From NCBI GenBank assembly GCA_964414685.1, contig CAYPXQ010000030.1:1-28227 (forward strand): DNA of 28,227 nucleotides, read 5' to 3'. Of the stretch, positions 1,319 through 23,201 are shown one piece after another. This DNA comes from an uncultured Actinomycetota bacterium. Its GTDB lineage: Bacteria; Actinomycetota; Humimicrobiia; Humimicrobiales; Humimicrobiaceae. Below the pieces are notes generated by a model. That model was not told the origin of the DNA and made no database searches. It saw only the letters and a program-made list of their open reading frames with translations. Numbering within the stretch: the first letter of the stretch is position 1; every line of letters starts with the position of its first letter. A program made the translations under genes and the position numbers.

Positions 1319-2584
1319 TCATTTTTTTAATTCATAAAGATATTTTCCGCCCTCTTCTATCCAGAGCTTTCCCGGACTATTAAAGTCATTTTTTATAATA
1401 GTGGAAGGATTCCTGTAACCCAGACCAACTTTTTTACATTTATCCTCAGGTATTGAAGTAGCCAGAGTGACCTTAAAAGCCAGGTCTTCCTTTCTGGTCT
1501 CAGGGTCAAATATACCCGGACCGCATACATTGATAAGGTGAGAAGCAGCATTTCTTGAAATATTAGCAGCATTTTTCATAAGACTGCATATATGATCCCG
1601 GCAATGATACCCTAAAGAAAAGAGGTCTTCTTCTATATCAGGGTTGGTATGGAAACACTTTATATGGGGGGCATATATTATTACTTCAGCGCCTTTTTTT
1701 AATACTCCCGGCTTCTGAAGCTTGTATGAACCTTTGCCAGCAAGCCATATTTCATCATAGTTGGAAGGGATTTCCTGAACTACCTGGGAGAGAGGGCTTT
1801 CCAGATATTTTATATGGACCTTTGACGAAGCCCCTGCTGCCTTTCTATAGGCACTTATAAATCCATCATAATCTTTATCTATATAAAGGCCCGTAGGTAC
1901 CGCTCCTGATCTTGATTCTATATTTACCATATTATATGAATATATGGGGCATTTAATATTAGAAAAAATAGCCCTTGCTCCAGCATTTATAATATCCCTT
2001 CCATTATTATCCACAGTCCCCAATATCTTTGGTATTCCTACAAGCACCGCCGCCCAGTGGAAAGCATCTATGACTTCGGGTCCCGATATCCCGGGAAAGA
2101 ATATCTTCAACCCCCCTGAATATCCTGCTGCCTCATGAGGAACAGTTCCTGAAAGGGCAATAATCAAATCATAATCAGAAAAAATAAGCTTATTAACAGT
2201 TATTTTTATTTCTGAGGCAAGCATTCCTTCGGTTTTTTCTTTTACCAGACAGCTATCTATCTTACCTGTGGTTGCAAGGCAGGAGGGGTCTGAGAATGAG
2301 TGATTTAAAAATTTTATATTCCTGAAAGGGACAAGATCCAGCTTTTTTACAAACTCTTCTTGCATCATAGGTCTGTGAGTGCCGCCGGCATTTAGAAAAT
2401 CTATTCTGGAATCCTGATATCTTTCTGCTATAGAAGGAGCTATCATATGGGAAAAGTCAATCCTGGTATAGTCGGGAAATAGCACCAAGATCTTTTTTGC
2501 AGGGGGCAGGTCTTTGAGGCTTTCCCTTATAAACCGGGAAAGCCTTTGATCCTCTATAATCGCCTTACCGTCTAAATATTTCAT
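1319..2584 (-). CDS. LarA-family (lactate racemase domain, DUF2088) nickel-pincer hydroxy-acid racemase/epimerase; putative mannonate/gluconate 2-epimerase
   Basis: Motifs PDYTR, GGTHRPM, NH, VPHEAAGYSGGLKIFFPG, FHW and WLAGK match LarA active-site and NPN-anchoring positions. ATG directly abuts the gnd stop (TAGATG). Confidence 0.85.
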   Translation of the reverse strand: MKYLDGKAIIEDQRLSRFIRESLKDLPPAKKILVLFPDYTRIDFSHMIAPSIAERYQDSRIDFLNAGGTHRPMMQEEFVKKLDLVPFRNIKFLNHSFSDPSCLATTGKIDSCLVKEKTEGMLASEIKITVNKLIFSDYDLIIALSGTVPHEAAGYSGGLKIFFPGISGPEVIDAFHWAAVLVGIPKILGTVDNNGRDIINAGARAIFSNIKCPIYSYNMVNIESRSGAVPTGLYIDKDYDGFISAYRKAAGASSKVHIKYLESPLSQVVQEIPSNYDEIWLAGKGSYKLQKPGVLKKGAEVIIYAPHIKCFHTNPDIEEDLFSLGYHCRDHICSLMKNAANISRNAASHLINVCGPGIFDPETRKEDLAFKVTLATSIPEDKCKKVGLGYRNPSTIIKNDFNSPGKLWIEEGGKYLYELKK

Positions 2585-4066
2585 CTATAGCTTTTTTTCC
2601 GGTCTATTATCTTCCATCCATTCGGTATGATATTCCTGATAGGAACCATCTTCCTTTAGTCCTATTTTTAGACTGCCCTCTTCAAGCTTGAAATAACCAT
2701 GAGCTCCAAAAAAGTCTCTTTGCTGTGCTGCTACCTGTGCTGATACCATAACTGATGAAGCTAGCTGAAGTATATAATCATAAGAACAGCTCATAGCCAG
2801 TGTCGGTACCCCCACATTATGTGCTACTTCTATGAAAACCTTCAGGCTGGAAAGATTCTTATTTATAAACTCTCTAAATGAGGGAGCCGCAATAAGATTA
2901 GATAGATCCTTGTTTCTGGCATATTCTTCTGTTATCCGTGATAGGAATCCTGCCCGTATTATGCATCCTCCCCTCCAGCCAGCAGAAATGGTGCCCATGT
3001 CTAATTCCCAGCCGTATTTTCTTGATGCTGCTCCCATCAAGGCAAAACCCTGGGCATATGATGATATTTTGGCAATATACAATGCGTCATGAGCTACTTT
3101 TATAAATTTATCAGGGTTCTCACTGAAGCTTTCCTGAATTACTTTTAGCTTTTCCGATACCGATAATCTTATATTCTTGTCCTGGCTCATCTCCCTTGAG
3201 AAAACCGCCGAGGCTATAGTGGGTATGGGGACCAGAAGTTCAAGGGCTGATGCTACTGTCCAGGTGCCTGTCCCTTTCATGCGGGTGATATCTGCTGTGA
3301 CATCTACCAGATATCTATCTGAGGATTTTTCTTTTTCCTTCATACCCTGACCGGTTATCTCTATAAGGTAGGAGGACAGGATACCTGAAGGATCGTTCCA
3401 TTGTGTCATTATTTCTGAGATCTTTGCTGCATCATATCCCAGAGCCGATTTTAAAGCCCATGCGGTCTCTCCTATTAGCTGCATATCACCATATTCTATG
3501 CCATTGTGCACCATCTTTACGAAATGGCCGGCTCCATCTTCACCAATATGGCATACACATGGTTGGCCGTCTTGGGCTTTGGCTGATATTCTCTCAAATA
3601 TGTCTTTTACCATGGCGTATGCTGCCTTTGTGCCTCCCGGCATAATAGCAGGGCCCAAAAGCGCTCCTTCTTCTCCTCCGGATATCCCTGTACCTATATA
3701 AAGTATGCCCTTTTCTTTAAGGTATTTTTCCCTTCTTATAGTATCCGTATAAAGTGAATTGCCTCCGTCTATTATGAGGTCTCCAGATGAGAGTAAAGGT
3801 ATTAGTTCTTTTATATTGTCATCTACTGGTTTTCCTGCCTTTACCATAAGCATTATCTTGCGAGGTCTTTTAAGAGAATCTACGAGTTCTTTAAAGGTGT
3901 AGGCAGCTTTTATATTTTTGCCTTTTGCTTTGCCGCTGATGAACTCTTTGGTACGCTCGCCTGTCCTGTTATATACTGCTGCTGAATATCCTTTGGACTC
4001 TATATTCAGGACTAGATTCTGCCCCATTACTGCAAGACCGATAAGTCCTATGTCATACTGCTGCAT
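2585..4066 (-). CDS. gnd: 6-phosphogluconate dehydrogenase, decarboxylating (NADP-type)
   Basis: IGLIGLAVMGQNL, YNRT, KMVHNGIEYGDMQL, KGTG, WRGGCIIRA, QRDFFGAH. Confidence 0.97.
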   Translation of the reverse strand: MQQYDIGLIGLAVMGQNLVLNIESKGYSAAVYNRTGERTKEFISGKAKGKNIKAAYTFKELVDSLKRPRKIMLMVKAGKPVDDNIKELIPLLSSGDLIIDGGNSLYTDTIRREKYLKEKGILYIGTGISGGEEGALLGPAIMPGGTKAAYAMVKDIFERISAKAQDGQPCVCHIGEDGAGHFVKMVHNGIEYGDMQLIGETAWALKSALGYDAAKISEIMTQWNDPSGILSSYLIEITGQGMKEKEKSSDRYLVDVTADITRMKGTGTWTVASALELLVPIPTIASAVFSREMSQDKNIRLSVSEKLKVIQESFSENPDKFIKVAHDALYIAKISSYAQGFALMGAASRKYGWELDMGTISAGWRGGCIIRAGFLSRITEEYARNKDLSNLIAAPSFREFINKNLSSLKVFIEVAHNVGVPTLAMSCSYDYILQLASSVMVSAQVAAQQRDFFGAHGYFKLEEGSLKIGLKEDGSYQEYHTEWMEDNRPEKKL

Positions 4067-4087
4067 ATGTATCTCCTTAAACTAGAT

Positions 4088-4912
4088 TTATATTCCCGAA
4101 AATGCTGAAAATCCCCCGTCTATGGGGATTATTGTGCCGGATACAAAGGCTGAAGCATCGGATGCCAGCCAGATCACTGCTCCTGCCAGGTCCTCCGCTT
4201 TCCCAAAACGGGCCATTGGGGTATGGGATATTATAGCCTTACCCCTTTCGGTAAACTTCTCGTCTTTATCAAAAAGAAGGAAGTGGTTCTGCCGAGTTAA
4301 AAAAAATCCCGGAGCTATGGCATTTACCCTCAAGTTCCTGTTATACTCCTGGGCAAAATGTACCGCCAGCCACTGCGTAAAGTTGGATACAGCAGCCTTG
4401 GCCGCTGAATAGCCTGGTATCCTGGTAAGGGGGCGGAAAGCATTCATGGAAGATATGTTTATTATGGATCCCCCTTCTTTGTTACCTGCCATAGTCTTAC
4501 CGAATACCTGGGCTGGAAGAATGGCTCCCCCGAATAGATTTAGGGAAATAACCTTTTCTAAGGCACTGAGGGGAAGGTCAAAAAATGAGAGCTCTTCTGA
4601 TGTGGTAGCAGCTTTTTGGTTTCCTCCGGCAGCACTTACCAGTATATCTATTTTGCCCATATCAGAAAGTACAGCGTCATGGCACTTTTCTATCTCTTCC
4701 TTTTTGAGGACATTTATATAGTAGCCTGCTGCATCTATTCCGCTACCTTTAAGACCCGCTATCAACTCTTCGCTGTCAACGATATCGCATATAGCCACTC
4801 TGGCACCAGCTTTGCCCAGGATAAGCGATATTTCCCGGCCCAGGACACCGGCTCCGCCAGTTACAATAGCTGTTTTTCCAGTTAGGTCAAATATCTCCAG
4901 ATAATCATTCAT
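4088..4912 (-). CDS. uxuB: SDR-family D-mannonate oxidoreductase / fructuronate reductase
   Basis: TGGAGVLG, NISSMNAFRPLTRIPGYSAAK, RVNAIAPGFFL, HTPMARFG; directly downstream of uxaE. Start moved from 4927 to the ATG at 4912, which has AAGGA 6 nt upstream. Confidence 0.85.
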   Translation of the reverse strand: MNDYLEIFDLTGKTAIVTGGAGVLGREISLILGKAGARVAICDIVDSEELIAGLKGSGIDAAGYYINVLKKEEIEKCHDAVLSDMGKIDILVSAAGGNQKAATTSEELSFFDLPLSALEKVISLNLFGGAILPAQVFGKTMAGNKEGGSIINISSMNAFRPLTRIPGYSAAKAAVSNFTQWLAVHFAQEYNRNLRVNAIAPGFFLTRQNHFLLFDKDEKFTERGKAIISHTPMARFGKAEDLAGAVIWLASDASAFVSGTIIPIDGGFSAFSGI

Positions 4913-4923
4913 AATTTGTCCTT

Positions 4924-6408
4924 TCATGCAAGCAGTTCCAGATGTTTTTTGATATTATCTTCTACATACTTGTAGTGCAGTTCTTCATTTTTAAACAATA
5001 CATCCAGAAGCCTCTTTTTAAGCTCTGTATAGGTCAGAATAGTTCCAAATGTCACATGGAGCATCTGCCTTGATTCATGTATATCGAGATAATTTTTAAG
5101 TTTTTTGTCATCAGTCTTTCCAATATCTGATAGTTTCGATGTATCTGTAGTAAGGTGATACGAATCCCTGTCTTTTTCAAAGCTTTCAAGACTTATTGTG
5201 TAGATCTTCCGGAATAGATCAGGGTCAAGCTCTGAAATAACTCTTATGGCTTCAAGGTAACTGGTTCCGGCCGTCTTTATATGAAATTTTCCCTCACAGA
5301 TTCTGGCAAACACAGGGTAAGTCGATAGCTTCTCACTGCCGGAATGAAGTGAAAGTTTATAGCCACCAAATATTTCTAATATTTTTGCATGTTCGCTTAA
5401 TTGGTTTTCTAAATCATTTAAATCACCTTTAAAATCTATAGCTTTTTCCCATTTTCCAGGAAAACGCAGAGCAAGATTATTGAATCTAACTCCAAGTCTC
5501 ATAAGCTCGCTACTGATAAAATAATGTTCCAGTGGTGTTACTTCCGTTTCTGTTTCATCCATAGATACTTCGAAATCAAAAGGCCTATTTGTATAGCTAT
5601 TAAGAAAACTATGAAGTTCCGCTACATTATTTATAGATCTTTCATATTTCACAGCCATGACGGCAAGAATATCCTTATCAATTAGATACTTCTTTTTCCC
5701 CAGATTAATTATTTTACCAAGATATGTTTTTTCAATTAGAGTCCTGTCATCAATATGGTTGTATAGACTTTTTATCTTCTCATTTGATAAATTTTGTATA
5801 CACATAACATTATCCGAAGGATCCACTGTAAACATATTAAACCCTGCATCTACAGCATCTTTTAGATCTTCTTTATTCTTTACATGATCAGCATCAGCTC
5901 CAAATCCCTGATCTGAGCCAGATTCAAAATAGCCCCATAAGCCAGTGGCCATAACATCACACCAATTTTTCCCAGTTCTATTAAGCTCCCTTGCAGATTG
6001 CTGGATAAGTACAGGAAAAATGTCTACATCGCTGAATGCTTTTATATGGGCAGCCGTGACCATACCAAGCCTGTCTCCGGTTCCGAAAGATGCTCTTTTA
6101 TTACAGACCACAGGCCCAGCATCCGTAAAAAAATCTCTGAGAATTTTTAAATTCATATATGTTAATGGACATATTTTAATAATATTTCTTTTTTTCCCTA
6201 TTTGAACATTGTCTATAACTTTACCCTCAAATTGTTCTAAATCCTTGAAATCTTCTATAACAAAAAGAAGTTTTTCATAAGAACTTTTACCGATTAAAAA
6301 AGCTTTATTTTTTTTTACCCTCAAAGAATTTAAATAAAATGAGTATTTAAGACCATTGATCTTTTGAATTATTCCTAAAATGCTGTTTTTATCCAATTTA
6401 ATATCCAA
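4924..6408 (-). CDS. uxaE: Tagaturonate/fructuronate epimerase
   Basis: SFGTGDRLG, QQSAREL.RTG, GADADH, FEVSMDET, LSLHSGS, HIKTAGTSYLEA, RQMLHVTFG. TTG start. Confidence 0.92.
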   Translation of the reverse strand: MDIKLDKNSILGIIQKINGLKYSFYLNSLRVKKNKAFLIGKSSYEKLLFVIEDFKDLEQFEGKVIDNVQIGKKRNIIKICPLTYMNLKILRDFFTDAGPVVCNKRASFGTGDRLGMVTAAHIKAFSDVDIFPVLIQQSARELNRTGKNWCDVMATGLWGYFESGSDQGFGADADHVKNKEDLKDAVDAGFNMFTVDPSDNVMCIQNLSNEKIKSLYNHIDDRTLIEKTYLGKIINLGKKKYLIDKDILAVMAVKYERSINNVAELHSFLNSYTNRPFDFEVSMDETETEVTPLEHYFISSELMRLGVRFNNLALRFPGKWEKAIDFKGDLNDLENQLSEHAKILEIFGGYKLSLHSGSEKLSTYPVFARICEGKFHIKTAGTSYLEAIRVISELDPDLFRKIYTISLESFEKDRDSYHLTTDTSKLSDIGKTDDKKLKNYLDIHESRQMLHVTFGTILTYTELKKRLLDVLFKNEELHYKYVEDNIKKHLELLA

Positions 6409-6469
6409 CCAGTTTATATTTTAATTTGAAGCTTATTGAATTCTGCTGCAGATAAAATTAATTATTGTT

Positions 6470-7495
6470 TTAGCCCCTTATATCTGCCACCGATTCTCTA
6501 ATAATCATCCTGGACTTTAGCCTTATTTTTTTATAATTCCTCTCAGAGGGGTTATCGATTCTTTTGAGGATCAGGTCGCAGGCATTCTTTGCAGCTTTAT
6601 ATAATGGTAACTTAGCAGTTGTCAGTCTAGGCACGCAAACGTTTGTAATGGGCATTCCGTCAAAACCGATAATTGATATATCGCCCGGGATCTTTAATCC
6701 TTCATCAAGAGCTCCCCTGATTGCGCCAATAGCAATTATGTCATTAAGGGCAACTATCGCTGTAAGGTCTCTTTTTCTTTTGATCAATTCTTTAGCTGCG
6801 TATGCTCCCGCCCTATAATCAAAATTACCTGCCCTTATTATTAATTCTTCATTATAAATCTTGTATTTTTTTAGTGCATCTATGTATCCATTTCTTTGAT
6901 CAACGCTATGGGAATGATCCAGCGGCCTATCGATATAGCCGATATTTTTATGGCCCCTATTAATCAGATAATTTGTAATCTCATTTGATCCAGAATAATA
7001 ATCAAATAATACCGAATCTACTTCAAAACCAGCTATTTCCCTATCCAGGAACAACAAGGGCACATTCAAGCTTTTTATTTCAGAAAAAGGCTCCGGTTCT
7101 CTTTCTATGGGTATGATAATGATCCCATCTACTTTTTTGGTTAATAATGTTTTTATAGCATCTAATTCTACCTGTAAAATATTAGAAGTATTAACAATTA
7201 TTAAATTATATTTTTTCAGGAACAATATTCTTTGAATATTTTCGGTCAGTTTTCCAAAGGTTTCATTTGATATGCTAGGGATTACCAAACCAATAGAATA
7301 TGTCCTATGACCTTTTAAACTCCTAAGCAATAAATTTGGATAGTATTTTAATTCTTTTATTGCCTGATTTACCCTATCGGTAACCTCTTCGCTAACATAC
7401 CGGGTTTTATTGATCACGTGAGAAACAGTAGCTACTGAAACTCCAGCTCTTTCTGCAACATCTTTAATTGACGTTCTTTTTTTATTCAGAATCAT
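6470..7495 (-). CDS. LacI-family transcriptional regulator (PurR/RbsR-like HTH)
   Basis: SIKDVAERAGVSVATVSHVINKTRYVS HTH, then a periplasmic-binding-type domain with IPGDISIIGFD and LTT. Confidence 0.95.
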   Translation of the reverse strand: MILNKKRTSIKDVAERAGVSVATVSHVINKTRYVSEEVTDRVNQAIKELKYYPNLLLRSLKGHRTYSIGLVIPSISNETFGKLTENIQRILFLKKYNLIIVNTSNILQVELDAIKTLLTKKVDGIIIIPIEREPEPFSEIKSLNVPLLFLDREIAGFEVDSVLFDYYSGSNEITNYLINRGHKNIGYIDRPLDHSHSVDQRNGYIDALKKYKIYNEELIIRAGNFDYRAGAYAAKELIKRKRDLTAIVALNDIIAIGAIRGALDEGLKIPGDISIIGFDGMPITNVCVPRLTTAKLPLYKAAKNACDLILKRIDNPSERNYKKIRLKSRMIIRESVADIRG

Positions 7496-7573
7496 AGTAT
7501 ATTCAGAATTATAAATTAAAAACTTAATATTTATATTTAAATATAAATTCTAATAAAAATCTTGATTTTATTT

Positions 7574-9052
7574 TTAATATTTATCATTTTGTAAAAAAGT
7601 GGATACAATTTTATTTATCTCTTTTATTTTATCTTCGGATAAACAATACTGATCTTTCTTTTTTCTATTCTTTTTGATTTCTTCATATGCTTTTTCCTCT
7701 ATTGTTTTTAACTTTTTAGTATTCCATGTATTCCAAGAAATACGATCCGGGAGATCAGAAAGATAGAACTCTTTTCTAAAATTTTCTATTGTATGCGGAC
7801 TTGACATATAGTTTCCTCCTGGGCTAATTTCATTTATCAGATCGAGAGCTAATGTGTCTTCATTAACTTCAAAACCTTTGATTATTCTTCTTATATATCC
7901 AATTATTTCATTATCAATTACTAACTGGACTGGAGAAAAAGTTATTCCGCCTGGTTCCAGGTTACCTAAGGTTCCGATACCTTCTGCCCCAAACATTATA
8001 GGAGTTATAGATGACAGCGCTTTCTCGAAACCAGCCTGTATATTAGGAATGCATGAGTCAGTTTTACCAGCATGCACACCAGTTGGGCATCCATAGAATC
8101 CATGGAGCATCTGGGTCATTCCTGCAACCAGGGTCATCTTGTCTGGAGAGGCGTAGGGAAAAGCAAATGTTTTCATATCAATAGCACTGGGGTTTAAGAT
8201 TATTCCCATCCTTACGTCAGGGTTTACAGCAAATCCCAGCACAACGCTGGCTATGCTTTCAGCTAAACCCAAGGCTATTGTGGAGGCCAATGTTGCTGGC
8301 GCAGTAGTGCCTGAGCAAGGCATGGTGTCATTTGCCTGTGGAAATCCTAATTTTGCATATTCAATAAAAATATCTGACATATTTTTATCAAAACAAAGTG
8401 GAGACCTTGTTTCAGCATAACCAATTAATAAGGGGGTTTTTATGCTGTTTTCTCTTGAACCAGATATCAGGTCACACATCTCTGCTATCGCATGCACATC
8501 ACGTTTATTCCAGGTTTCTATTCCTCCCAGTTTTTTAGTTCTTTTTAAAAGCTCTGCTGTCATTTTTATTGGTCTTTCACTAAAAGGTATCTCCTGGGCA
8601 GAGCAGGGCAAACCAACCATATCTATATTTTCAAGCGAATCAGCAAGTTCTATTCCGTCTATTACATCTTCCATTGTGGCTTTTCTTCTTGTATTATCCT
8701 TATCTAAAACAAACATACTGAAGCCCCCTGCATTGGCAGTAAAATCAGTATGCACTTGATAATTTCTCTTGGTGAAAAAAGTCCTGGAATACCTATTATT
8801 TGAGAAGGCCTCCTCACTATCATCAGAATATTTTTGTTTCATCAAATCTATATAATTCTGAGAAATTTTTTTAGGGAAACGCACAATTTTTGTTCCGTTA
8901 TTAACCCTGCAGCCTGCTTGCTTATAATAATCCCGCGCTTCTTGTGCTTCTATCCACATTCCGGTATTCTGCAATATATCCAAAGCTGCACTATGAAGCT
9001 TTTCCATCTCAATATCTGAAAATAATTTTAATATTCCTTTTACTGATCCCAT
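7574..9052 (-). CDS. Trimethylamine methyltransferase (MttB) superfamily protein, non-pyrrolysine
   Basis: H..AL.IL...G N-terminus, SPLCFD, PCSGTTAPATLA, QAGFEK, TFSPVQLVIDNEI, GGNYMS.PHT. SD AGGAG. Confidence 0.9.
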   Translation of the reverse strand: MGSVKGILKLFSDIEMEKLHSAALDILQNTGMWIEAQEARDYYKQAGCRVNNGTKIVRFPKKISQNYIDLMKQKYSDDSEEAFSNNRYSRTFFTKRNYQVHTDFTANAGGFSMFVLDKDNTRRKATMEDVIDGIELADSLENIDMVGLPCSAQEIPFSERPIKMTAELLKRTKKLGGIETWNKRDVHAIAEMCDLISGSRENSIKTPLLIGYAETRSPLCFDKNMSDIFIEYAKLGFPQANDTMPCSGTTAPATLASTIALGLAESIASVVLGFAVNPDVRMGIILNPSAIDMKTFAFPYASPDKMTLVAGMTQMLHGFYGCPTGVHAGKTDSCIPNIQAGFEKALSSITPIMFGAEGIGTLGNLEPGGITFSPVQLVIDNEIIGYIRRIIKGFEVNEDTLALDLINEISPGGNYMSSPHTIENFRKEFYLSDLPDRISWNTWNTKKLKTIEEKAYEEIKKNRKKKDQYCLSEDKIKEINKIVSTFLQNDKY

Positions 9053-9092
9053 TTTGCTCCTAAAATCCTTAAAAAGTTAGATGATTCTCGGT

Positions 9093-9863
9093 TTAATATT
9101 TTAATAATGACGCTGATTCTTTATCTAAAAAGAGTTCTGCACATTTATGGGTTCTCATAATGGTGGCAGGTACTTTTTCGCTGATATCTTCGGAAAAAAC
9201 TTTCTTGATTATGTTTGCCTTATAATCTCCCGGCACAATAATTAAAGCAAATCTAGAATTAAAAAGTGTCGGAATAGTCACTGTTATAGCTTCATCTGCA
9301 ACCAGATTAACAGAATCAAAGAATCCGTCCCGTACTTGCTGCTGTCTGCAGGTCTGGTCCATTTGGACGACTTTGATCATCTCGTGGTCATTAAATTTAG
9401 CCACATGAGGATCATTAAAAGCTATATGCCCATTTTCTCCAATACCAATAAATGCAATATCAAGAGGATATTTTTTTAGAAGATCTGAATATCTTTTCAT
9501 TTCAGCATGAACATCAGCATTTCCGTCAATATAAAATATATTTTTAAAATCCCATTTGCTGAATATTCTTTCATTTAAATATTTCCCAAATTTTTGCGGA
9601 TACTCATTGCCGACCCCAATATATTCATCCATATGAAAAGCATTTACTTTTTTCCAGTCTATACCATCCATTTTACTTAATGCATCCAGGAAATCATCTT
9701 GCGAATGCCCGGCAGCGAACATTATGTTCGCTTCATCTTTCTCGGATAATATTTTACCTATTAGTTCTTTTGCTTTGGCTGATGCTGCTTCGCCCATAGC
9801 TTTGCTTGTTTTAAAAACTTTCACCTGTAAATCATCCTTTTTGAACTCTGCCAACATATCCAT
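9093..9863 (-). CDS. Glucosamine-6-phosphate deaminase/isomerase (NagB) family protein, atypical subtype
   Basis: FHMDEY, GIGENGHIAFND, Q..DG.F, AITVTIPTL, PATI.RTH. AAGHSQ replaces the PTGGTP loop of E. coli NagB. Confidence 0.85.
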   Translation of the reverse strand: MDMLAEFKKDDLQVKVFKTSKAMGEAASAKAKELIGKILSEKDEANIMFAAGHSQDDFLDALSKMDGIDWKKVNAFHMDEYIGVGNEYPQKFGKYLNERIFSKWDFKNIFYIDGNADVHAEMKRYSDLLKKYPLDIAFIGIGENGHIAFNDPHVAKFNDHEMIKVVQMDQTCRQQQVRDGFFDSVNLVADEAITVTIPTLFNSRFALIIVPGDYKANIIKKVFSEDISEKVPATIMRTHKCAELFLDKESASLLKY

Positions 9864-9914
9864 ATTTCCAATCCCTTCTAAATTAATCTATGTTTATAAT
9901 AATGGTTTTTTAAA

Positions 9915-11765
9915 TTAATTGACCCAGATCGGACTTGACCAGGCCAGGCTATCGTCCTCTTGTTCGGCCCTAATATAATAATATGCTTCCTTTTCTTCTG
10001 GATCTTCAAGAAAACTGCAAGTAAAACTTTGGTCTTCCGCTTTAAAATTTTTATGGATTTCTCCATTTTTTATTAAATAAATATTGTTTAATTTTTTTGT
10101 TCCAATGACACTTATAAAGAACTCTAAACATTCTTCATCTTTTATAGTGATCTCACTACCCATAAGATTCCCATTAATTTGAAAATCCAAGATTATTCTT
10201 TCGCCCATAGTCCCGTAAACTCTTCTCTGGTAAATAGCATCCCATATATCTTCCCGTGTAAGATTTTCGGCAAATACTGCTATTAATCCTCCTTTATATC
10301 CTTTATAACCTCTCATCCACCAATTATTGCCAGGATGCCCCTCATGAGAATCGCTAGATGCAATTATTCCCAGTCTATAGCCTCTATTTAGAGCATCTAT
10401 TATTGTCTTTCCATTTTCATATTCAGAAGCAGCCTTTAATTTATGTTTGCAATGGGGAGACTCTGAATTTCCCCAGGTTGAATAAATCTCTGCAATTCTT
10501 ATAAGATCCTGATCAAAATAATCCCAATTAGTCCCAAATAATTTGCTGGTAGTATGGTGAGGTATCACTAATACATCCTTATCTTTTAATAATCTGAATA
10601 ATTTTTCGGGAGTATTACTTTCTTTATCTTTGCACCTGTAAAGCGGCCCGTCATCTTCACGATAATATATATTCTTGTCTCCTCCAAGTATCTCTTCGTT
10701 ATATTCATAGGCAAGCAATGTTACGAACCTGCCAGGTTCATAGTATCTTTTAACACATTCTTTTGTGTGGACCCATTCATCATCGGATAGCAAAGTTTCA
10801 GTAGCATCATGAGGCGTTGCCGCACAAAAATCTAAATTAGACATATTTCTGCCGTATTCCAGATATTCTTCTAAAGTGCCAAGTCCATCATCTAATAAAC
10901 AGTGCCCGTGTATATCACCCCAATATATATTGTATTTATTATTGATTTTTGTTTTCAATATTGGGTTGCTGGCTCCAATATTGTTAGTTGATCTGTCTAT
11001 TATTTCTATTACGGAATAATTTTCCTTTGAAAGAATATTTATATTGTAGTCTGGTTTCTTTTCTACACATAGATTTCCATCTCTATTTTTAATGCTTATT
11101 TCAAATTTTGTTTCTTTTATATAATTATTATAAAAATCTTTTGAAATTATATTCGCTCTCCCGGGATCATTATTAGATATAACCGAATTTGAACTAATTT
11201 CTATTTTATGAACTTTATCGGGTAAAATTTTTAATTTGGGAGGGTCATCCACCAAAAAAAACCCGCTATAGGGTGCCTCTGACCTTCCATTAGAATCCAC
11301 AGAAACAGCAAATTCAACTTGTTGCGTAAATTCTTGTGTCCTCGCTCCTGGCGAGCCAAATCCCCTTTCTCCATATATAAATGTTATAATATCATTTTTT
11401 ATTAATTCACCCTTATCTATATATACAAAAAAACTTAAACCCCATGTCTCTACATAAGCTTCTTCATAGTCGTTATCCGCAACTATGCTAGTCATATCAG
11501 ATTTATCTATTTTATTGTAGTCGGTATGAAAACAGACATCTTTGTTTGAACATCTAACGGTCATAAAACCTTCATCTTTTGGGTTTTGAGTTTGGGGCAT
11601 AGAAAAACGTAAAGGAATATTTATCCTAATGATCCCTCCGGGTTTTATTGTTATATCTCCAATACGATAAATTATTTTCCATGTACCATAAGTAGCCGCG
11701 ATTGCAGGCTCGCATGGGACTATTTCTGCTGTCCCCAATCCTTTTTTAAACTGTTCCCTTCTCAT
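9915..11765 (-). CDS. PHP-fold metallohydrolase (DUF3604 / CehA-McbA-like) with a large N-terminal domain
   Basis: WGDIHGH, PHD, LAYEY, IPHH, EIYSTWG, IASSDSHEGHPG, GGLIAVFAENLTREDIWDAIYQRRVYGT, YYYIR.EQ.D...AWSSPIW. No signal peptide seen. Confidence 0.8.
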   Translation of the reverse strand: MRREQFKKGLGTAEIVPCEPAIAATYGTWKIIYRIGDITIKPGGIIRINIPLRFSMPQTQNPKDEGFMTVRCSNKDVCFHTDYNKIDKSDMTSIVADNDYEEAYVETWGLSFFVYIDKGELIKNDIITFIYGERGFGSPGARTQEFTQQVEFAVSVDSNGRSEAPYSGFFLVDDPPKLKILPDKVHKIEISSNSVISNNDPGRANIISKDFYNNYIKETKFEISIKNRDGNLCVEKKPDYNINILSKENYSVIEIIDRSTNNIGASNPILKTKINNKYNIYWGDIHGHCLLDDGLGTLEEYLEYGRNMSNLDFCAATPHDATETLLSDDEWVHTKECVKRYYEPGRFVTLLAYEYNEEILGGDKNIYYREDDGPLYRCKDKESNTPEKLFRLLKDKDVLVIPHHTTSKLFGTNWDYFDQDLIRIAEIYSTWGNSESPHCKHKLKAASEYENGKTIIDALNRGYRLGIIASSDSHEGHPGNNWWMRGYKGYKGGLIAVFAENLTREDIWDAIYQRRVYGTMGERIILDFQINGNLMGSEITIKDEECLEFFISVIGTKKLNNIYLIKNGEIHKNFKAEDQSFTCSFLEDPEEKEAYYYIRAEQEDDSLAWSSPIWVN

Positions 11766-11784
11766 AATATAACCCTTAAATTAA

Positions 11785-12606
11785 TTATTTTATTGCTCCG
11801 CTGGTCAAGCCTTTTACAAAATACTTTTGTCCAAATAGATACAGGATTATCATTGGTAAACCCACAAAAAATGCTCCAGTCATTATAAAGGTGGGATAAA
11901 TTGAATATTTTCCTATAAACATTGCCAGTTCAACTACTATTGTCCTCTTGGCATTATCCTGCAATAATAATAGCGCAATTAAAAGTTCGTTCCATACCCA
12001 TAAGCCATTCACTATAAATAAAGAAATTATTGAGGGTCTGGACAGGGGGACAATTATTTTTAACAGAATCATAAAACTGCTGCAGCCATCGATTCTCGCT
12101 GCTTCTAATATTTCATTTTCTATAGTAATGAAAAAGCTGGTCAAAATAAAAATTGAAATAGGAAGCATGAAGCCGGCGTAAACCAGGCTTGCTCCTAAAT
12201 AACTATTTATCAGACCTATTTTTGACAATAAAGAGTATAAGGGTATTATGACAACTATTGCTGGCATGGCAGTAAAAGCAATAGTTATATTAAATAAAGC
12301 ATCTCTTCCCCTGAATTTCATTTTAGCATATGCATAAGATGCAAATATTGAAATAAGTATGGCTATAATCGTTGATGAAAAAGTTAAAATCAATGTATTG
12401 ATCATAGGGCGGTAGATCTCCCTATCGATGATCAAAATTTTAAAATTTTCCAAAGTTGGTTCTATAGGTATGCCATAATTGTTATCATAATACTCTGTTT
12501 CGCTTTTAAAAGCCGATACTCCCATAAAATAGATCGGAACAAGCGCGCTTAATGAGAATAATATTAAAACTATGTGTAGTGGAACTTTTCTTAAAAATTT
12601 TAACAT
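11785..12606 (-). CDS. Carbohydrate ABC transporter permease (MalG/UgpE-like)
   Basis: About six hydrophobic segments; EAA loop EILEAARIDGCS; AYAYAKMKFRGR. Confidence 0.93.
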   Translation of the reverse strand: MLKFLRKVPLHIVLILFSLSALVPIYFMGVSAFKSETEYYDNNYGIPIEPTLENFKILIIDREIYRPMINTLILTFSSTIIAILISIFASYAYAKMKFRGRDALFNITIAFTAMPAIVVIIPLYSLLSKIGLINSYLGASLVYAGFMLPISIFILTSFFITIENEILEAARIDGCSSFMILLKIIVPLSRPSIISLFIVNGLWVWNELLIALLLLQDNAKRTIVVELAMFIGKYSIYPTFIMTGAFFVGLPMIILYLFGQKYFVKGLTSGAIK

Positions 12607-13478
12607 TATTCTTCCATTTCTTTTCTTAAATAATGCTGAAGAAAGATAAAGATCATTATTCCGAATAGCAGCAGCACTGATAACGCTGAAGCAATCCCCC
12701 GTAGATTTTTCAGGAATGCAAAACTATAGATCTCGAGTTCAATCACTGTAGTTTTATTTGCCGGCCCTCCGCCCGTAAGAACATAAACATAGGCAAAGAT
12801 CCATGCAAAATTTATCATTATTTTATATACAACAAAAAAACTGATTAAGCCTTTTAGTTGAGGGGTAGTTATATAGATCAACCTTTGAAGCCAATTAGCC
12901 CCATCAACCTTAGAGGCATCAATAATTGATTCGTCCAGGGATGCCAGCCTGGCTGAAAACAATAAAATCCCGAACCCTAATTCTTTCCATACAATTATTA
13001 AAATTATTGTATAAATGGCAATATTTGCATCTCCAAGCCAATCCAAGGCTAAAAAATCAAGGTTTAATGTCTTAAATATGTTGTTAACAAGGCCATTGGT
13101 CCTTAATAAATAGCTAAATATTAATCCTACAACAACAATAGATAACACTTTTGGAATAAAAATTATTGTTTGGTATATTTTGCCTCCACGAACACCTTCA
13201 TAGAAGATAACAGCAAAAAATATAGATAAAACTAATAATACCGGTATAGATAATAATAGTTTTAGATTATTGAATAATGCAGTTCTTGCCCCGATGTCTC
13301 TGGTCAATAAGTATAAATAATTCTCAAATTTTACAAAAATAACTTCTCCGCCAGAAAACCTGTAAAAACTATCCCTGATCATTCTAATGATCGGATAGAA
13401 ATACACTAATCCCAATAGTGCAACTGAAGCTGATATAAATAAATAAGGTTGTAAGATTCTAGTTTTTCTCATATACAA
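12606..13478 (-). CDS. Carbohydrate ABC transporter permease (MalF/UgpA-like)
   Basis: Hydrophobic segments; EAA-like loop SIIDASKVDGANWLQR; VYVLTGGGP. TAATG overlap with the next permease. Confidence 0.93.
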   Translation of the reverse strand: MYMRKTRILQPYLFISASVALLGLVYFYPIIRMIRDSFYRFSGGEVIFVKFENYLYLLTRDIGARTALFNNLKLLLSIPVLLVLSIFFAVIFYEGVRGGKIYQTIIFIPKVLSIVVVGLIFSYLLRTNGLVNNIFKTLNLDFLALDWLGDANIAIYTIILIIVWKELGFGILLFSARLASLDESIIDASKVDGANWLQRLIYITTPQLKGLISFFVVYKIMINFAWIFAYVYVLTGGGPANKTTVIELEIYSFAFLKNLRGIASALSVLLLFGIMIFIFLQHYLRKEMEE

Positions 13479-13500
13479 GTTTAAAATATAACAAATTTTG

Positions 13501-13530
13501 CCGGGGCTCTTTTTTCATAAAGAGCCCCGG
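13501..13530 (-). terminator. Perfect 12-bp stem-loop between the SBP and first permease (mRNA-stabilising hairpin or partial terminator)
   Basis: CCGGGGCTCTTT-tttcat-AAAGAGCCCCGG. No immediate U-run on the minus strand (followed by CAAAAUUUG). Confidence 0.7.
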
Positions 13531-13549
13531 GTTAATGAAAACAATTATA

Positions 13550-14995
13550 TTATTCAGAAGCCCATATATCATATTTTTCAAAGGCTTCCGGATTCAGCTC
13601 TTGCCAATTTGCGGCAGCATCGTCAACCATTTGTACTGCTTCTGCTGGTTCAATATCGCCAGAAATGACTGATTGTCCGGCTGGCAATATTCCATCACCA
13701 AGTATTGCATATGGCAGTACAGCATCTGCATACCAAATACCGTTTTGAAATCCACCGATTATTTTTTCGAATACTTCTTTTCTTTGCGGATTATCAATAA
13801 TATCAATATCAAACCTGTCATCAGCAGGTATAGTGACCCCATTTAATACTTCAACCATTGCATTCATCCTTTCCTGGCTATGCAGGAACATCAGGAAGTC
13901 TGCAGCTAGCTCTTTATTAGGAGACCACTCTGTTATAAATAATGACATTGGCACACACGGTATCCAATCAACAGCGTTTCCAGTTTCTTCAATGGTGGGA
14001 ATAGGCATTATGCCCATCTTCTCCGAGCCCAGTTCTTCCAGCCAGCCAAATGCTTTCATGCTGGGTGTGAAACCGAAAGTTGCATTTCCGCTCCTCCATT
14101 CATTCAAAGCTTCTGGAGGCACAATTGACGTGGCATTCTCAATCAAATAGTCATTACTATTAAACTGATCTATAATGGTGAATAATTCATCGAAGCCTAC
14201 ATCTCCAAAACTTTTGTTGCCGGCAGCAGCAACTATTGTTTCCTTTGAATTACCTATTTGATTGACGATATGTCCAGAAAATATGGATGTCATCCAGCCT
14301 GGAGATTTAAATCCCATTGCAAAAGGAGAAATTCCAACGCTTTTTAGTGCTTCGCATACTTCAATCAATTCAGTCCAATTCCCAGGAGGGTCTTCAGGGT
14401 CTAGTCCAGCTTCTACAAAATGTTCTTTATTGTAAACCCATACACTTCCATAACCATATAGATCTGAAGCCCAGACTTTACCATCATAGGTTGATAAGCT
14501 TTTACCTGTCCAATGCTCCATCTCTTCTTCAGGAATATAATCATTTAATGGTACTACATTGCCAGCCCAAACTTCCTCTAATTGATAAACGCCATACCAG
14601 ATTGTGGCAATATCTGGACCTTCTTGCGCTTCGGCCGCGGCCTTAAATGCTGGAATCGTGTTTGATGTATCCTGCAAGACTTGTTCTATTTCTACATTTG
14701 GATATAACTCTTCATAAGCTTCTATAGAATCTATTATATAATTCTCTAATCCAGGGACATCAGTTTCTCCCCACCACCATAGAGTCAATTTTACAGGTTC
14801 TTCTGTAACAGTTTCTTCGACTTCTTCTGAAACTTCTGCTTCTTCTTCCATATTTTCCTCATCTTCCGATACATCTGTAGAGGATTCTTCCACTGTGGCA
14901 TTTTCTTCAGCGCATCCTGCTCCTATGAGCGAGAAACTAATAACAAATATCAGACACATTATTAGTATAATAGCTCTTTTCATGTTTATAACCAT
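13550..14995 (-). CDS. CUT1 ABC transporter substrate-binding lipoprotein
   Basis: Hydrophobic signal with lipobox-like GAGC, acidic Glu-rich linker, LTLWWWGE, GPDI, YNKEHFVEAGLDPEDPPGNWTEL. Start could be the ATG at 14983. Confidence 0.93.
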   Translation of the reverse strand: MVINMKRAIILIMCLIFVISFSLIGAGCAEENATVEESSTDVSEDEENMEEEAEVSEEVEETVTEEPVKLTLWWWGETDVPGLENYIIDSIEAYEELYPNVEIEQVLQDTSNTIPAFKAAAEAQEGPDIATIWYGVYQLEEVWAGNVVPLNDYIPEEEMEHWTGKSLSTYDGKVWASDLYGYGSVWVYNKEHFVEAGLDPEDPPGNWTELIEVCEALKSVGISPFAMGFKSPGWMTSIFSGHIVNQIGNSKETIVAAAGNKSFGDVGFDELFTIIDQFNSNDYLIENATSIVPPEALNEWRSGNATFGFTPSMKAFGWLEELGSEKMGIMPIPTIEETGNAVDWIPCVPMSLFITEWSPNKELAADFLMFLHSQERMNAMVEVLNGVTIPADDRFDIDIIDNPQRKEVFEKIIGGFQNGIWYADAVLPYAILGDGILPAGQSVISGDIEPAEAVQMVDDAAANWQELNPEAFEKYDIWASE

Positions 14996-15105
14996 TCCTT
15001 TCGCTTTGCTTAAGGTATAAATGGATTAAAACCTTTTTCCTTAAGACTTTTTTATGACTATATGCATCTACTGCAGCAAGGCGGATGTGATGCTGCTTAC
15101 CTTTT

Positions 15106-15164
15106 AGCATTATATGTGCCGATTATGTGCCAGAAAAACACATACTGGATAAACCGCTTATCCA
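15106..15164 (-). promoter_or_regulatory. Candidate promoter/operator region of the ABC operon
   Basis: Minus strand: TATAAT at 15114-15109; direct repeats GGCACATA with 11-bp period; inverted repeat TGGATAA-gcggt-TTATCCA (15146-15164) containing a LacI-type AANCGNTT core. Confidence 0.45.
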
Positions 15165-15326
15165 CCTTTAACATCGATCTTTTAAAACTATACAACTGGC
15201 TTTTATCAAACCCTTACTTTGCAAATTTATAATAAGCCATTGAGTAAACATTTAGTTTTTAGAGATCTTCGTCAGCATGGTTTTCTTTACCATACCCAAT
15301 TCTGGAATTTTCTAGTTTTCTAAATT

Positions 15327-15455
15327 TTATTTTTTTCCAGGCTTTCCTCCTTTTTTTAAGGATTGGTATGCATTAAAATAATCTTGAGATTTGTTTAAAT
15401 TAATTGCTTCTAGGCACATCAATGGCAATAGTTTAACAAATCTCTTTTTTACCAT
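15327..15455 (-). CDS. Unannotated 42-aa small ORF or gene remnant
   Basis: AGGGAGGT SD 3 nt before ATG; MVKKRFVKLLPLMCLEAINLNKSQDYFNAYQSLKKGGKPGKK*. Below the ORF-track cutoff. Confidence 0.35.
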   Translation of the reverse strand: MVKKRFVKLLPLMCLEAINLNKSQDYFNAYQSLKKGGKPGKK

Positions 15456-15531
15456 ATTACCTCCCTTCAAATATCAATTATTTTATTAATTAATAATATC
15501 TTCAATATGTCCAGTACGATTCAACAATTAG

Positions 15532-16995
15532 TTACCCTGAATTCCATTTATTTTTTAGCTCAATAAATTTTTTATCATATTCGTCCATTATGCCATCCAG
15601 CGCTTCTTGGGTATCGTCAGCAAGCGGAACTGCAAAGTGGTTTTTTATTATATTGATAATATCTTCTTTTGCCCGCTTTTTTATAGATTGAAAAATTTGC
15701 TTTCCACTAACTAATCCCTGTCTGGAAGAAAGGTACGGCTTCCAAACCTCGCTGTTTCTCATATATTTTATGGTATGGTCGTGCATAATTATGTTTGCCC
15801 CATTGACCATATCTTTAATAGAATTAAAAGCTAGGTGATCTTCATCCATATCTATCCCATTTAATATTCTCCTTATTGCACCAAAGCGTTCATTATCCAA
15901 TGCCATTGTTTCGAATGAGGTTAAAGTTACATTAGCTAAGCCGCCCAGACCTCCCAGAAGACTAGGATTTGCGCTTCCAATCAGTAATGAATTAATAGAT
16001 TTTTCATCTGAAGCCTGTTCATCTAATATTGCAGAGCTTGTGTGTCCATGTCCCCAGGAAGGCATTCCAAGGTAATTCGCCAGCTTTACAGCAAGACTCC
16101 GCATCAATCCTGTTTCAGGTCCCCCTGTGGTTGAGGTAAGTGTTTGCAGATCAGCCACAGAAGGTGTATTCAGACTAATGATTGGCAATTGTTTATTGAT
16201 AGTATGGGCCATAACTGCAATTGCTAGCTCCTCTGCATGGCCTAAAGAAACAGCCCCAGCAATTGTATAGGGAGCTGTTGAGCCCATTATGGGGTTAGTA
16301 AGGGCTATTATGGGCAACCCCGACCGAGCAATTGTTATTAATGCATCAACCAGGTCGAATGGAAAATATAAAGGAGAAATAGCGGCTATAAATGGAGCAC
16401 AGGTAGGATTCTGTGACAGGTCATTTTTAGCGTTATTCCCCAATAATGAAGCAATTTTTACAACAGCTTCTGCTTCCCGCTTATTACATACTCCAGGTCC
16501 CAATAAAGGTTTTGTGGTATTCTTTACAGTATAGATGAAATCTGTCAATGTATTCATATGAGGTTCTACATCTGTGGCATCAAGTAAAGAAACATATACT
16601 ATATCAATCTCATTTAATGCATCCAGTATTCTTGTAGATACTTCAATATCGCTTCTCAGTGTCCTTCTGACCAATCCAGTTTCAAAGTCAACAATATTGG
16701 GTAAAATACCGGTATTGGTAAACAATGTAGATCCATTTGATTCAATATCTGCCATTTTTCCGTTACGGCCATGTAATGTGACTGAGTTGGGAATATCTCT
16801 AATTGTATTAGCCACCAGATCTGGCTGAATATAAACTCTATTATCCTTGATCTTGCATCCATTTTCTGAAAGCTTTCCCCTTATTTGAGGATGTTCGATC
16901 CGCACACCAAGCTCGGATAAAATGGATAGGGAATTCTCATGTATTTTTTTTAGCTGTTTTTCTTCTATCTTGTTTAATCCTATTGAATTAATCAT
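15532..16995 (-). CDS. Trimethylamine methyltransferase (MttB) superfamily protein, non-pyrrolysine
   Basis: IHENSLSILSELG, ISPLYF, GSTAPYTIAG, TTGGPETGL, QASDEK, SFETMALDNE, HDHT.KYMR. Confidence 0.9.
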   Translation of the reverse strand: MINSIGLNKIEEKQLKKIHENSLSILSELGVRIEHPQIRGKLSENGCKIKDNRVYIQPDLVANTIRDIPNSVTLHGRNGKMADIESNGSTLFTNTGILPNIVDFETGLVRRTLRSDIEVSTRILDALNEIDIVYVSLLDATDVEPHMNTLTDFIYTVKNTTKPLLGPGVCNKREAEAVVKIASLLGNNAKNDLSQNPTCAPFIAAISPLYFPFDLVDALITIARSGLPIIALTNPIMGSTAPYTIAGAVSLGHAEELAIAVMAHTINKQLPIISLNTPSVADLQTLTSTTGGPETGLMRSLAVKLANYLGMPSWGHGHTSSAILDEQASDEKSINSLLIGSANPSLLGGLGGLANVTLTSFETMALDNERFGAIRRILNGIDMDEDHLAFNSIKDMVNGANIIMHDHTIKYMRNSEVWKPYLSSRQGLVSGKQIFQSIKKRAKEDIINIIKNHFAVPLADDTQEALDGIMDEYDKKFIELKNKWNSG

Positions 16996-17040
16996 AATTT
17001 TTAGCTCTTTATGGCATCGGTAGTTTATATATAGTCTATA

Positions 17041-17097
17041 GTTAATTAATTACGTAAATATTTAACTAATAATATAGAATTTATTCTTCATTGTCAA
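17041..17097 (-). promoter_or_regulatory. Sigma70-type promoter with a palindrome over the start site, driving the mttB-like gene
   Basis: TTGACA (17097-17092), 17 nt, TATTAT (17074-17069), then a 26-bp imperfect palindrome GTTAATTAATTACGTAAATATTTAAC (17041-17066; 11 of 13 pairs symmetric). Confidence 0.7.
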
Positions 17098-17195
17098 ATA
17101 TTAAATTAACAATTTGTCGTTATTCAGTGAAAGTTAATAATATCCCTTGTCGACATGACTCGATCTCTAGAAAGTAAAGATTGGTGTAGCCTAAT

Positions 17196-17253
17196 GACTA
17201 AAATGTAATGTAATCCATTTTGGTCTTTACTATTCGGGAATTCTGTATATAAT
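17196..17253 (+). promoter_or_regulatory. Promoter of the AAA+ ATPase gene (probably leaderless) with an upstream inverted repeat
   Basis: TTTACT (17226-17231), 16 nt, TATAAT (17248-17253), 6 nt, ATG; no SD. Inverted repeat GACTAAAATG-N10-CATTTTGGTC at 17196-17225. Confidence 0.55.
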
Positions 17254-17259
17254 AGTAGC

Positions 17260-18405: not shown

Positions 18406-18411
18406 TAAGAT

Positions 18412-19272: not shown

Positions 19273-19288
19273 AATATTATCCTTTAGA

Positions 19289-20503: not shown

Positions 20504-20517
20504 GGAAAGAAAATTCC

Positions 20518-21084: not shown

Positions 21085-21174
21085 TGAAGCCTCCAATATC
21101 AACAATTAAAAGATCTTCCGGCACAGATCCCGGTTTGAAGTATAAAAATGCCATACCCGCATGATAAAAGACTG

Positions 21175-23145: not shown

Positions 23146-23201
23146 TTATTTATAACTTCCTTTTCTATAATCTATATCAAACTTAGATAATATTACAAAT
23201 A

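Follow-up and report, generated by a model that had tools for sequence, protein, structure and literature searches.

The window analysed here, a stretch of 28,227 nucleotides from an uncultured Actinomycetota bacterium of the Humimicrobiaceae (contig CAYPXQ010000030.1), encodes at 9093-9863 on the minus strand a NagB-like deaminase/isomerase of 256 residues. From its sequence, this protein is a predicted NagB-type isomerising deaminase and not an orthologue of glucosamine-6-phosphate (GlcN-6-P) deaminase. Our leading, still tentative proposal is that it may deaminate a non-phosphorylated amino-uronate and feed tagaturonate or fructuronate to the neighbouring hexuronate module, an assignment drawn entirely from comparative genomics. 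The observations that carry it are the replacement of canonical phosphate ligands in an otherwise conserved NagB active site and the association of this NagB-like subfamily with hexuronate genes in genomes that lack the uronate isomerase UxaC.

Protein family and active site

The open reading frame (ORF) at 9093-9863 is intact, with an ATG start and a Shine-Dalgarno-like AGAAGGGA about 10 nt upstream. Its product matches Pfam Glucosamine_iso (PF01182) with 71 bits (E=1.7e-19; gathering cut-off 27), and a database search returned more than 7,800 homologues. The AlphaFold2 (AF2) model, folded with an alignment, has a pLDDT of 95.7 and adopts the NagB fold; its template-modelling (TM) scores are 0.85-0.87 against the solved NagBs 2bkv (B. 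subtilis), 1dea (E. coli), and 3hn6 (Borrelia), and 0.78 against 6-phosphogluconolactonases. Collectively, the fold, homologues, and Pfam match indicate that the ORF is a genuine gene rather than one that arose by chance.

The protein scores 126.7 bits against the nagB model TIGR00502, whose cut-off is 236.9, and it also falls below the cut-offs of all other nagB models. Similarly, it reaches 74.4 bits against AgaI (NF007291; cut-off 271) and 63.3 bits against 6-phosphogluconolactonase (TIGR01198; cut-off 124.45). Its identity to canonical NagBs is only 27-30%, while most of its relatives are about 50% identical to it and come from Bacteroidota, Bacillota, Spirochaetota, and other phyla. In a tree of 84 sequences, these AAAPSQ-type NagB-like proteins form one clade with a Shimodaira-Hasegawa-like approximate likelihood-ratio support of 99, and the branch between them and canonical NagB measures about 5 substitutions per site. 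Another member, from L101, scores 131.5 bits against TIGR00502, likewise below 236.9. The nearest relatives of the window protein are two metagenomic sequences (P0002 and P0003, 57-59% identity, on 2-kb contigs), which form a trio with it within the subfamily; a metagenome scan with this clade recovered nothing above 52% identity, all of its matches being ordinary members of the subfamily. No characterised member of the subfamily was found in the literature, and we regard it as an uncharacterised sister group with predicted deaminase activity.

The active-site segments are uniform across the subfamily whatever the gene context, namely FAAAPSQNEF, FHMDEY, GIGENGHIAFNDP, CRQQQVNDGCF, and VPxxxKAxA, with the AAAP loop present in 74 of 80 relatives. 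In the window protein, the corresponding motifs are FAAGHSQ (residues 49-55), FHMDEY (76-81), and GIGENGHIAFNDP (140-152). The catalytic MDEY and GH, the NDP, and the AAGHSQ loop named in the original prediction are therefore all present in the translation; of these, AAGH is particular to the small clade, whereas NDP and GENGH occur across the whole subfamily. The variants specific to the clade of the window protein, P0002, and P0003 are AAGH/ATGR, QDDF, and VRDGFF.

Based on the residue map, the equivalents of E. coli NagB Asp72 and His143 (D79 and H146) are invariant. Glu148 corresponds to an aspartate (D151) in 77 of 80 relatives, and N140-D141 corresponds to E143-N144. The phosphate loop T41-G-G-T44-P of the E. 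coli enzyme becomes F-A-A-A-P in the subfamily and F-A-A-G-H in the window protein. In a profile-profile alignment with 17 canonical NagBs, the lid motif A-N-S-R172-F-F becomes V-N-D-G-C-F, or V-R-D-G-F-F in the window protein. For the Arg172 position, MAFFT gave Q176 and phmmer gave R178; we relied on the profile-profile result, in which hhalign places Arg172 on Gly180, preceded by Asp179. Lys208 of canonical NagB is kept as Lys215 and, overall, it is the only element kept of the canonical 6-phosphate site (G42-G43-T44, Arg172, and Lys208). For S. mutans NagB, Lys194, Thr38, and Ser37 are reported to bind the phosphate, and the lid residue Arg159 to contact the substrate (PMC8369159); by alignment, these residues correspond to K208, T44, G43, and R172 of the E. 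coli enzyme. Collectively, the residue map indicates that the NagB catalytic machinery is kept, that two canonical phosphate ligands are gone, and that an acidic residue lies beside the position of the former arginine. In the window protein, the former phosphate pocket would comprise A50-H53, S54, Q55, R178, G180, and K215. By score, by phosphate ligands, and by pathway partners alike, the protein is predicted to stand outside the GlcN-6-P enzyme.

Gene neighbourhoods of the subfamily

To place the subfamily, neighbourhoods were surveyed at 80 genome loci and 46 metagenome loci, and in 50 carrier genomes. A NagB above cut-off is also encoded in 44 of the 50 carriers, either stand-alone or as a fusion of about 650 residues, so the NagB-like gene is normally a paralogue, presumably with another job. 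No kinase is found among its regular neighbours. UxuA and UxuB lie within 10 kb of the NagB-like gene at 9 and 11 of the 80 genome loci, respectively, and UxaC does so at a single locus (L114).

The carrier genomes differ according to whether UxaC is present. Thirteen of the 50 lack UxaC, and ten of these have UxuA; in seven of the ten, a distance of 1-8 kb separates the sole UxuA from the NagB-like gene. Of the 28 UxaC-positive genomes whose UxuA is full-length, just one has the two genes less than 10 kb apart, and UxuA typically stands beside UxaC in these genomes (Fisher p=7e-5, not adjusted for kinship). The seven loci belong to Clostridia (L063, L087, and L109), Treponemataceae (L070), Bacteroidales/Rikenellaceae (L089 and L090), and the isolate Cytobacillus sp. 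Hz8 (L101), and thus span at least four to five unrelated lineages. The check put forward with the original prediction, whether the NagB-like gene accompanies hexuronate genes in genomes without uxaC, thus gives a positive result for the subfamily as a whole. These UxaC-less organisms need a source of fructuronate, and NagB chemistry acting on glucosaminuronate or mannosaminuronate would provide one.

The cassettes that join NagB-like and Uxu genes vary in composition. In L007, L139, and L163, genes for LacI, NagB-like, NagA-like, the TRAP transporter DctPQM, a cupin, and SIS_2 are found with UxuA or UxuB. In L101, L109, and L107, the cassette consists of ROK/LacI, an SSF or ATP-binding cassette (ABC) importer, AGE epimerase, a ceramidase-like protein, NagB-like, NagA-like, SIS_2, UxuA, and UxuB. 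In L168, it consists of GH20, MFS, NagA, NagB-like, four GFO proteins with ApbE, KdgK, Eda, UxuA, and UxuB. TRAP systems import carboxylates, so the transporter in L007, L139, and L163 points to a carboxylate substrate. The DctP subunit is nearest to 4pc9/4pcd, which we take to be sugar-acid binders, and then to SiaP. A sialic-acid reading of the TRAP cassettes was rejected because they contain no NanA/DHDPS gene. The SIS_2 partner has 250 residues and is often accompanied by a 110-residue cupin in the Firmicutes-type cassettes (L007, L139, L163, L101, L109, and L034). For this neighbour, MurNAc etherase (MurQ) was considered and dropped, as NCBIfam gave only NF002805 (UPF0309-type) and no etherase model.

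At L168, positions 6877-17541 run from MFS, NagA, NagB-like, four GFO/IDH/MocA genes, and an ApbE flavin transferase directly into KdgK-Eda-UxuA-UxuB. L070 resembles it in its upstream half, which was annotated together with a UxuA about 8 kb downstream. A locus of this Bacteroidota or spirochaete type suggests an oxidative, non-phosphorylative route from N-acetylhexosamine to fructuronate.

The hexuronate module and its genome

On the minus strand, the cluster runs in the order MttB2, substrate-binding protein (SBP), two permeases, DUF3604/PHP hydrolase, NagB-like protein, MttB1, LacI, UxaE, UxuB-type short-chain dehydrogenase/reductase (SDR), Gnd, LarA, and PfkB. The window corresponds to contig C30 of a metagenome-assembled genome (MAG; G000) of 1.6 Mb and 83% completeness. 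Neither in the window nor in the whole 83%-complete MAG did we find uxaC, nagA, uxuA, a ROK protein over cut-off, or a phosphotransferase system (PTS) EIIC, so the reported combination of uxaE/uxuB with no uxaC, nagA, or obvious amino-sugar kinase or PTS holds at both scales. Furthermore, a JGI contig 99.94% identical to the window runs beyond PfkB into a PIN/MazE pair, which shows that uxaC is not hidden just past the contig end. The sole other Glucosamine_iso gene of the genome is a normal Pgl beside transaldolase (C109). LarC is present and UxuA was not found, which makes a route through GntE and Gnd coherent. A second Gnd (C163:1632-3107) is 76% identical to that of the cluster.

In the lineage of the window, the UxaE-UxuB-Gnd-LarA-PfkB block is a mobile module with differing feeders. 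In the same-genus genome G006 (L040, C36 71-8809), the module is 80% identical, follows a CE15/glucuronyl-esterase-like hydrolase, and is directly followed by UxaC. In G033 and G303, which have no UxaC (G303 being 97% complete), it abuts SIS_2, an FmdA/AmdA amidase, a NagA-like gene, and a NagB-like gene of another clade, whose product is 40% identical to the window protein; the NagA-like partner in G033 scores 198 bits, below the nagA cut-off of 225.65. Counting the window, there are therefore two independent arrangements in which the UxaE module has a NagB-like neighbour, each in genomes without UxaC. In G366 (L227, C6) and G265 (L229, C9), which also have no UxaC, two Zn-ADH-like genes and one for a GFO oxidoreductase lie ahead of UxaE-UxuB-Gnd-LarA and may form an oxidative feeder to tagaturonate, and a PFK-family kinase follows in place of PfkB. 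The module of G027 probably has dehydrogenases upstream, and the upstream side of that in G034 is cut by a transposase. PfkB orthologues 72-82% identical to that of the window occur in the same module of G006, G034, and G303. Six genomes from another family of the phylum were also compared; UxaC is present in five, adjoining UxaE in three of these. As a side observation, URO-D/MtaA-like TIM-barrel genes stand beside UxaE-type modules and sugar ABC importers in L037 (G034:C48 386-2543) and L038 (G030:C4), which hints at corrinoid-dependent demethylation of methylated sugars in the lineage.

Proposed pathway

Under the amino-uronate proposal, the adjacent ABC importer would bring in a non-phosphorylated 2-amino-2-deoxy-hexuronate. 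The MttB paralogues would transfer N-methyl groups to corrinoid proteins whose genes lie outside the cluster, or the DUF3604 hydrolase would cleave off an acyl or ester substituent, or both steps would occur. Partners in trans are available, as the genome has at least five small corrinoid proteins (on C181, C197, C172, and C20) and two more MttB genes outside the cluster. In the NagB-like protein, the conserved histidine would open the ring and the aspartate of MDEY would abstract the C2 proton; hydrolysis of the resulting enamine/imine intermediate would yield ammonia and a 2-keto-uronate. A galacto-configured substrate would give tagaturonate and a gluco- or manno-configured one fructuronate; because the UxaE module travels as a block regardless of its feeder, its presence fits either product. 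Tagaturonate would then be converted to fructuronate by UxaE, fructuronate to mannonate by UxuB, mannonate to gluconate by LarA/GntE, gluconate to 6-phosphogluconate by the PfkB kinase, and 6-phosphogluconate to ribulose-5-phosphate by Gnd. The whole route would run without UxaC or UxuA.

The lower part of this scheme resembles that of T. maritima and L. suebicus, in which UxaE, UxuB, a LarA-type GntE, a kinase, and Gnd lead to ribulose-5-phosphate without UxuA, KdgK, or Eda (PMC7583248, PMC6978723). The LarA homologues of T. maritima and C. glutamicum are D-gluconate 2-epimerases with demonstrated GntE activity (PMC7583248), and L. suebicus degrades galacturonate via UxaE and UxuB to 6-phosphogluconate (PMC6978723). 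In contrast, those routes start with UxaC, whereas in the window no UxaC was found and the kinase is of PfkB type. The T. maritima UxaE route to 6-phosphogluconate is said to have been described by Rodionova in 2012.

Relative to UxaC, the window protein would be a functional analogue that delivers tagaturonate or fructuronate to UxaE/UxuB. However, UxaC is an unrelated, amidohydrolase-type TIM barrel that releases no ammonia, and the NagB-like route would need an amino-uronate. With the NagBs of E. coli (1dea), B. subtilis (2bkv), and S. mutans (2ri1), the window protein shares the fold, the aspartate of MDEY, the histidine of G-H-I-A-F-N, and Lys208, and the same isomerising-deamination chemistry is expected. 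It differs in the GGT(P) loop, which is AAAP or AAGH in the subfamily, in the glycine at Arg172, in an insertion after NDP, and in a genome that shows no NagA, kinase over cut-off, or PTS. AgaI/AgaS and the SIS-type NagB-II are other deaminases that produce a ketose from an amino-aldose, but the SIS enzymes have another fold and all of these enzymes act on 6-phosphates. The OngB/OngC pathway deacetylates GlcNAc1A from oxidised chitin and then deaminates it to an intermediate of the 2-keto-3-deoxygluconate (KDG) type (PMC12017989). It is an earlier example of a pathway devoted to an amino sugar that is acidic and non-phosphorylated, but the compound degraded there is an aldonic (C1) acid and the deaminase differs in both fold and chemistry. 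Because the NagB reaction requires a free carbonyl at C1, it fits uronic (C6) acids.

A broader and more doubtful extension is that the whole subfamily, thousands of genes, consists of hexosaminuronate deaminase/isomerases on a UxaC-independent route from N-acyl-aminouronate through aminouronate to fructuronate or tagaturonate, coupled in the window to corrinoid N-demethylation by the two MttBs. Bacterial capsules, O-antigens, and teichuronic acids, as well as archaeal glycans, commonly contain amino-uronic acids (GalNAcA, ManNAcA, and GlcNAcA, including amides and diamino forms), for which no catabolic route was found in the literature. If the proposal is true, it would constitute an undescribed, UxaC-independent entry into hexuronate catabolism and would explain genomes with UxuA/UxuB or UxaE but no UxaC. 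It would also provide the first sugar-type substrate for MttB enzymes, extending corrinoid methyltransferases from betaines to amino sugars. Moreover, an annotation in wide use would be incorrect if the missing deaminase is this subfamily.

Alternative functions

Several observations weigh against an amino-uronate substrate, and we set them out with the explanations they favour. The first concerns the genes closest to the NagB-like gene, of which MttB1 is its conserved partner. On the metagenome contig L208 (JGI Ga0111034_1209548), from a second organism, positions 1385-13369 encode MttB2, MFS, NagB-like, MttB1, SBP, two permeases, aldehyde:ferredoxin oxidoreductase (AFOR), Ub-Mut7C, and LacI. 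The MttB1 orthologue there (63% identity) starts on the stop codon of the NagB-like gene, and MttB2 and LacI are 64% and 57% identical to those of the window; the LacI orthologue indicates that the window LacI belongs with the MttB/NagB-like cassette. This core cassette contains no uronate gene, and AFOR takes the place of DUF3604. Accordingly, the window may simply hold two adjacent units, this cassette and the UxaE module. Further MttB1 orthologues (60-62%) on the metagenome contigs L206, L207, and L209 are accompanied by one or two DegT aminotransferases, a URO-D-like protein, two Amidohydro_2 proteins, and MttB, in what is an uncharacterised amine-processing locus. A protein of about 195 residues with no Pfam hit also belongs to this block, and a sigma-54 regulator and another URO-D gene lie near. 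The company of DegT and Amidohydro_2 indicates that the MttB1 clade goes with enzymes removing amino groups from sugars, which suggests an N-methylated amino sugar as the putative substrate of the cassette. The cassette is rare: a sample of 400 genomes of the phylum yielded no MttB1 orthologue, so it was probably acquired as a unit.

From these observations, the protein could be a deaminase/isomerase of a neutral, non-phosphorylated amino sugar such as an N-methylhexosamine, acting after N-demethylation by MttB and giving a ketose, with the UxaE-Gnd module an unrelated neighbour. The nearest solved relatives of the window SBP bind neutral oligosaccharides, and the replaced phosphate ligands fit this explanation as well. 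Nevertheless, the cassette has no dedicated ketose kinase, and the gap between lacI and uxaE is only 61 nt, with no terminator detected in a promoter/terminator scan whose counts equalled those of shuffled sequence, so the two halves may be co-transcribed. In addition, the module abuts another NagB-like clade in G033/G303, and Uxu genes and TRAP transporters accompany the subfamily at large. We consider a neutral substrate unlikely, although it is the next most probable after an amino-uronate. The original prediction of an amino-uronate deaminase that replaces UxaC thus gains from the co-occurrence, the TRAP cassettes, and the replaced phosphate ligands, and loses from the MttB1 partner and from L208. 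Its suggested link between the two cluster halves has the 61-nt gap and the G033/G303 pairing in its favour and the L208 cassette without a UxaE module against it.

The second set of observations concerns phosphorylated hexosamines. The substrate of every subfamily member is a prediction from sequence, and NCBI labels the members glucosamine-6-phosphate deaminase. A NagA-like amidohydrolase is the commonest neighbour, adjacent at 55 of 80 genome and 33 of 46 metagenome loci, and three tested partners, typical or Uxu-linked, exceed the nagA cut-off of 225.65 with 235-287 bits. Of 57 NagA-like partners, 55 retain Arg227, which we take to bind the anion in E. coli NagA, a conservation that fits phosphate and carboxylate alike. 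The NagA-like neighbours show an amino-sugar role, not a phosphorylation state. GH20, MFS, and GFO/IDH/MocA neighbours are also commoner than Uxu genes. Furthermore, the retained Lys208 and an additional Arg178 near the lid position would fit phosphate as well as carboxylate. In the genome itself, C230:4006-4965 (L226) encodes a 319-residue BcrAD_BadFG protein with 96 bits against NagK_SO3507 (cut-off 370); it adjoins a trehalose-phosphatase gene and is the sole amino-sugar-kinase-like candidate found in the genome. This weak kinase and the 83% completeness of the MAG may leave room for a classical pathway.

The protein would then be a divergent isozyme of GlcN-6-P or GalN-6-P deaminase, sharing the NagB fold and the catalytic Asp and His, and amino-sugar and uronate genes would occur together since glycans hold both sugars. 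The heparinase II/III-like lyases beside L089 and L090 agree with such a source. However, the protein lies below every nagB and agaI equivalog cut-off, most carriers already possess a true NagB, neither T44 nor R172 is retained and an acidic residue adjoins the former arginine position, and nagA, PTS, and ROK genes were not found in its own 83%-complete genome. An isozyme would also leave unexplained why UxuA/UxuB without UxaC occur exactly at this gene, and why TRAP importers do. On balance, we judge this explanation rather improbable.

The third set concerns the supply of the module. Modules of UxaE type without UxaC or an adjacent NagB-like gene occur in G034, G366, G265, and G030, which shows that other feeders exist. 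Many Uxu-linked loci also encode a further candidate isomerase, be it AGE, SIS_2, a cupin, or a TIM barrel resembling xylose isomerase, and such a neighbour could replace UxaC instead. At L087, none of the four is among the BLAST-labelled genes, four upstream ORFs there being unannotated. Alternatively, the NagB-like protein itself could be a non-deaminating aldose-ketose isomerase for glucuronate or galacturonate, that is, a non-orthologous UxaC. The same pattern of UxaC absence would follow, and the NagB/RpiA superfamily contains plain isomerases. Nevertheless, the partners are nearly always N-deacylases, MttB, or DegT, pointing to a nitrogen-bearing substrate, and the full NagB catalytic set is retained, which makes a plain isomerase very improbable. 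Finally, a 6-phosphogluconolactonase serving the neighbouring Gnd was rejected as scarcely credible: it would share the Pfam family and suit a cluster with Gnd, but the protein reaches 63 bits against a TIGR01198 cut-off of 124, has NagB motifs and a structure nearer NagB (TM 0.78 to the lactonases), and lies in a cluster without G6PD in a genome with its own Pgl on C109.

Other features of the window

All genes of the cluster are on the minus strand. In the hexuronate module, a PfkB-family sugar-acid kinase resembling gluconate, mannonate, or KDG kinases (PF00294) is encoded at 212-1291, and a LarA homologue at 1319-2584, likely a GntE-type hexonate 2-epimerase (NF052594, 177 bits, below the cut-off of 500). 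The 6-phosphogluconate dehydrogenase Gnd follows at 2585-4066 (NF006765, 593 bits), the UxuB-type SDR of the D-mannonate oxidoreductase subfamily at 4088-4927 (NF006132, 345.9 bits; cut-off 281), and the tagaturonate/fructuronate epimerase UxaE at 4924-6408 (PF16257, 519.5 bits). The LacI-family regulator lies at 6470-7495.

MttB1 (492 residues; PF06253, 239 bits) occupies 7574-9052, 40 nt downstream of the NagB-like gene. On the other side of the NagB-like gene, 9915-11765 encodes a DUF3604/CehA-McbA-like PHP metallohydrolase with N-terminal Ig-like domains (PF12228; NF038032, 79.6 bits against 80). Its AF2 model matches the PHP phosphoesterase folds 3e38 and 2anu, both uncharacterised; no sequence homologue was found for it in the PDB, and its homologues are located in glycan and sugar-acid loci. 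The importer is of the CUT1 sugar type (11785-14995), with permeases at 11785-12606 and 12606-13478 and the SBP at 13550-14995 (BPD_transp_1 and SBP_bac_1). MttB2 (487 residues; PF06253, 214 bits) lies at 15532-16995. The 536-nt gap between the MttB2 and SBP genes (14996-15531), in which JGI calls a 42-residue ORF on the identical contig, is probably a promoter or regulatory region of the importer operon.

The remainder of the window (17260-28112) holds housekeeping genes, namely an AAA_14/DUF4143 ATPase, a folB-folK fusion, folP, folE, ftsH, hpt, and tilS, together with a YmdB-like metallophosphoesterase and fdhD-like and ThiF/MoeB-like genes, the names being taken from the translations. These genes are unrelated to the NagB-like cluster. 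A 404-residue ORF at 21941-23155 on the plus strand, antisense inside ftsH (21175-23145, minus strand) and of odd composition, is most likely a shadow ORF and not a gene.

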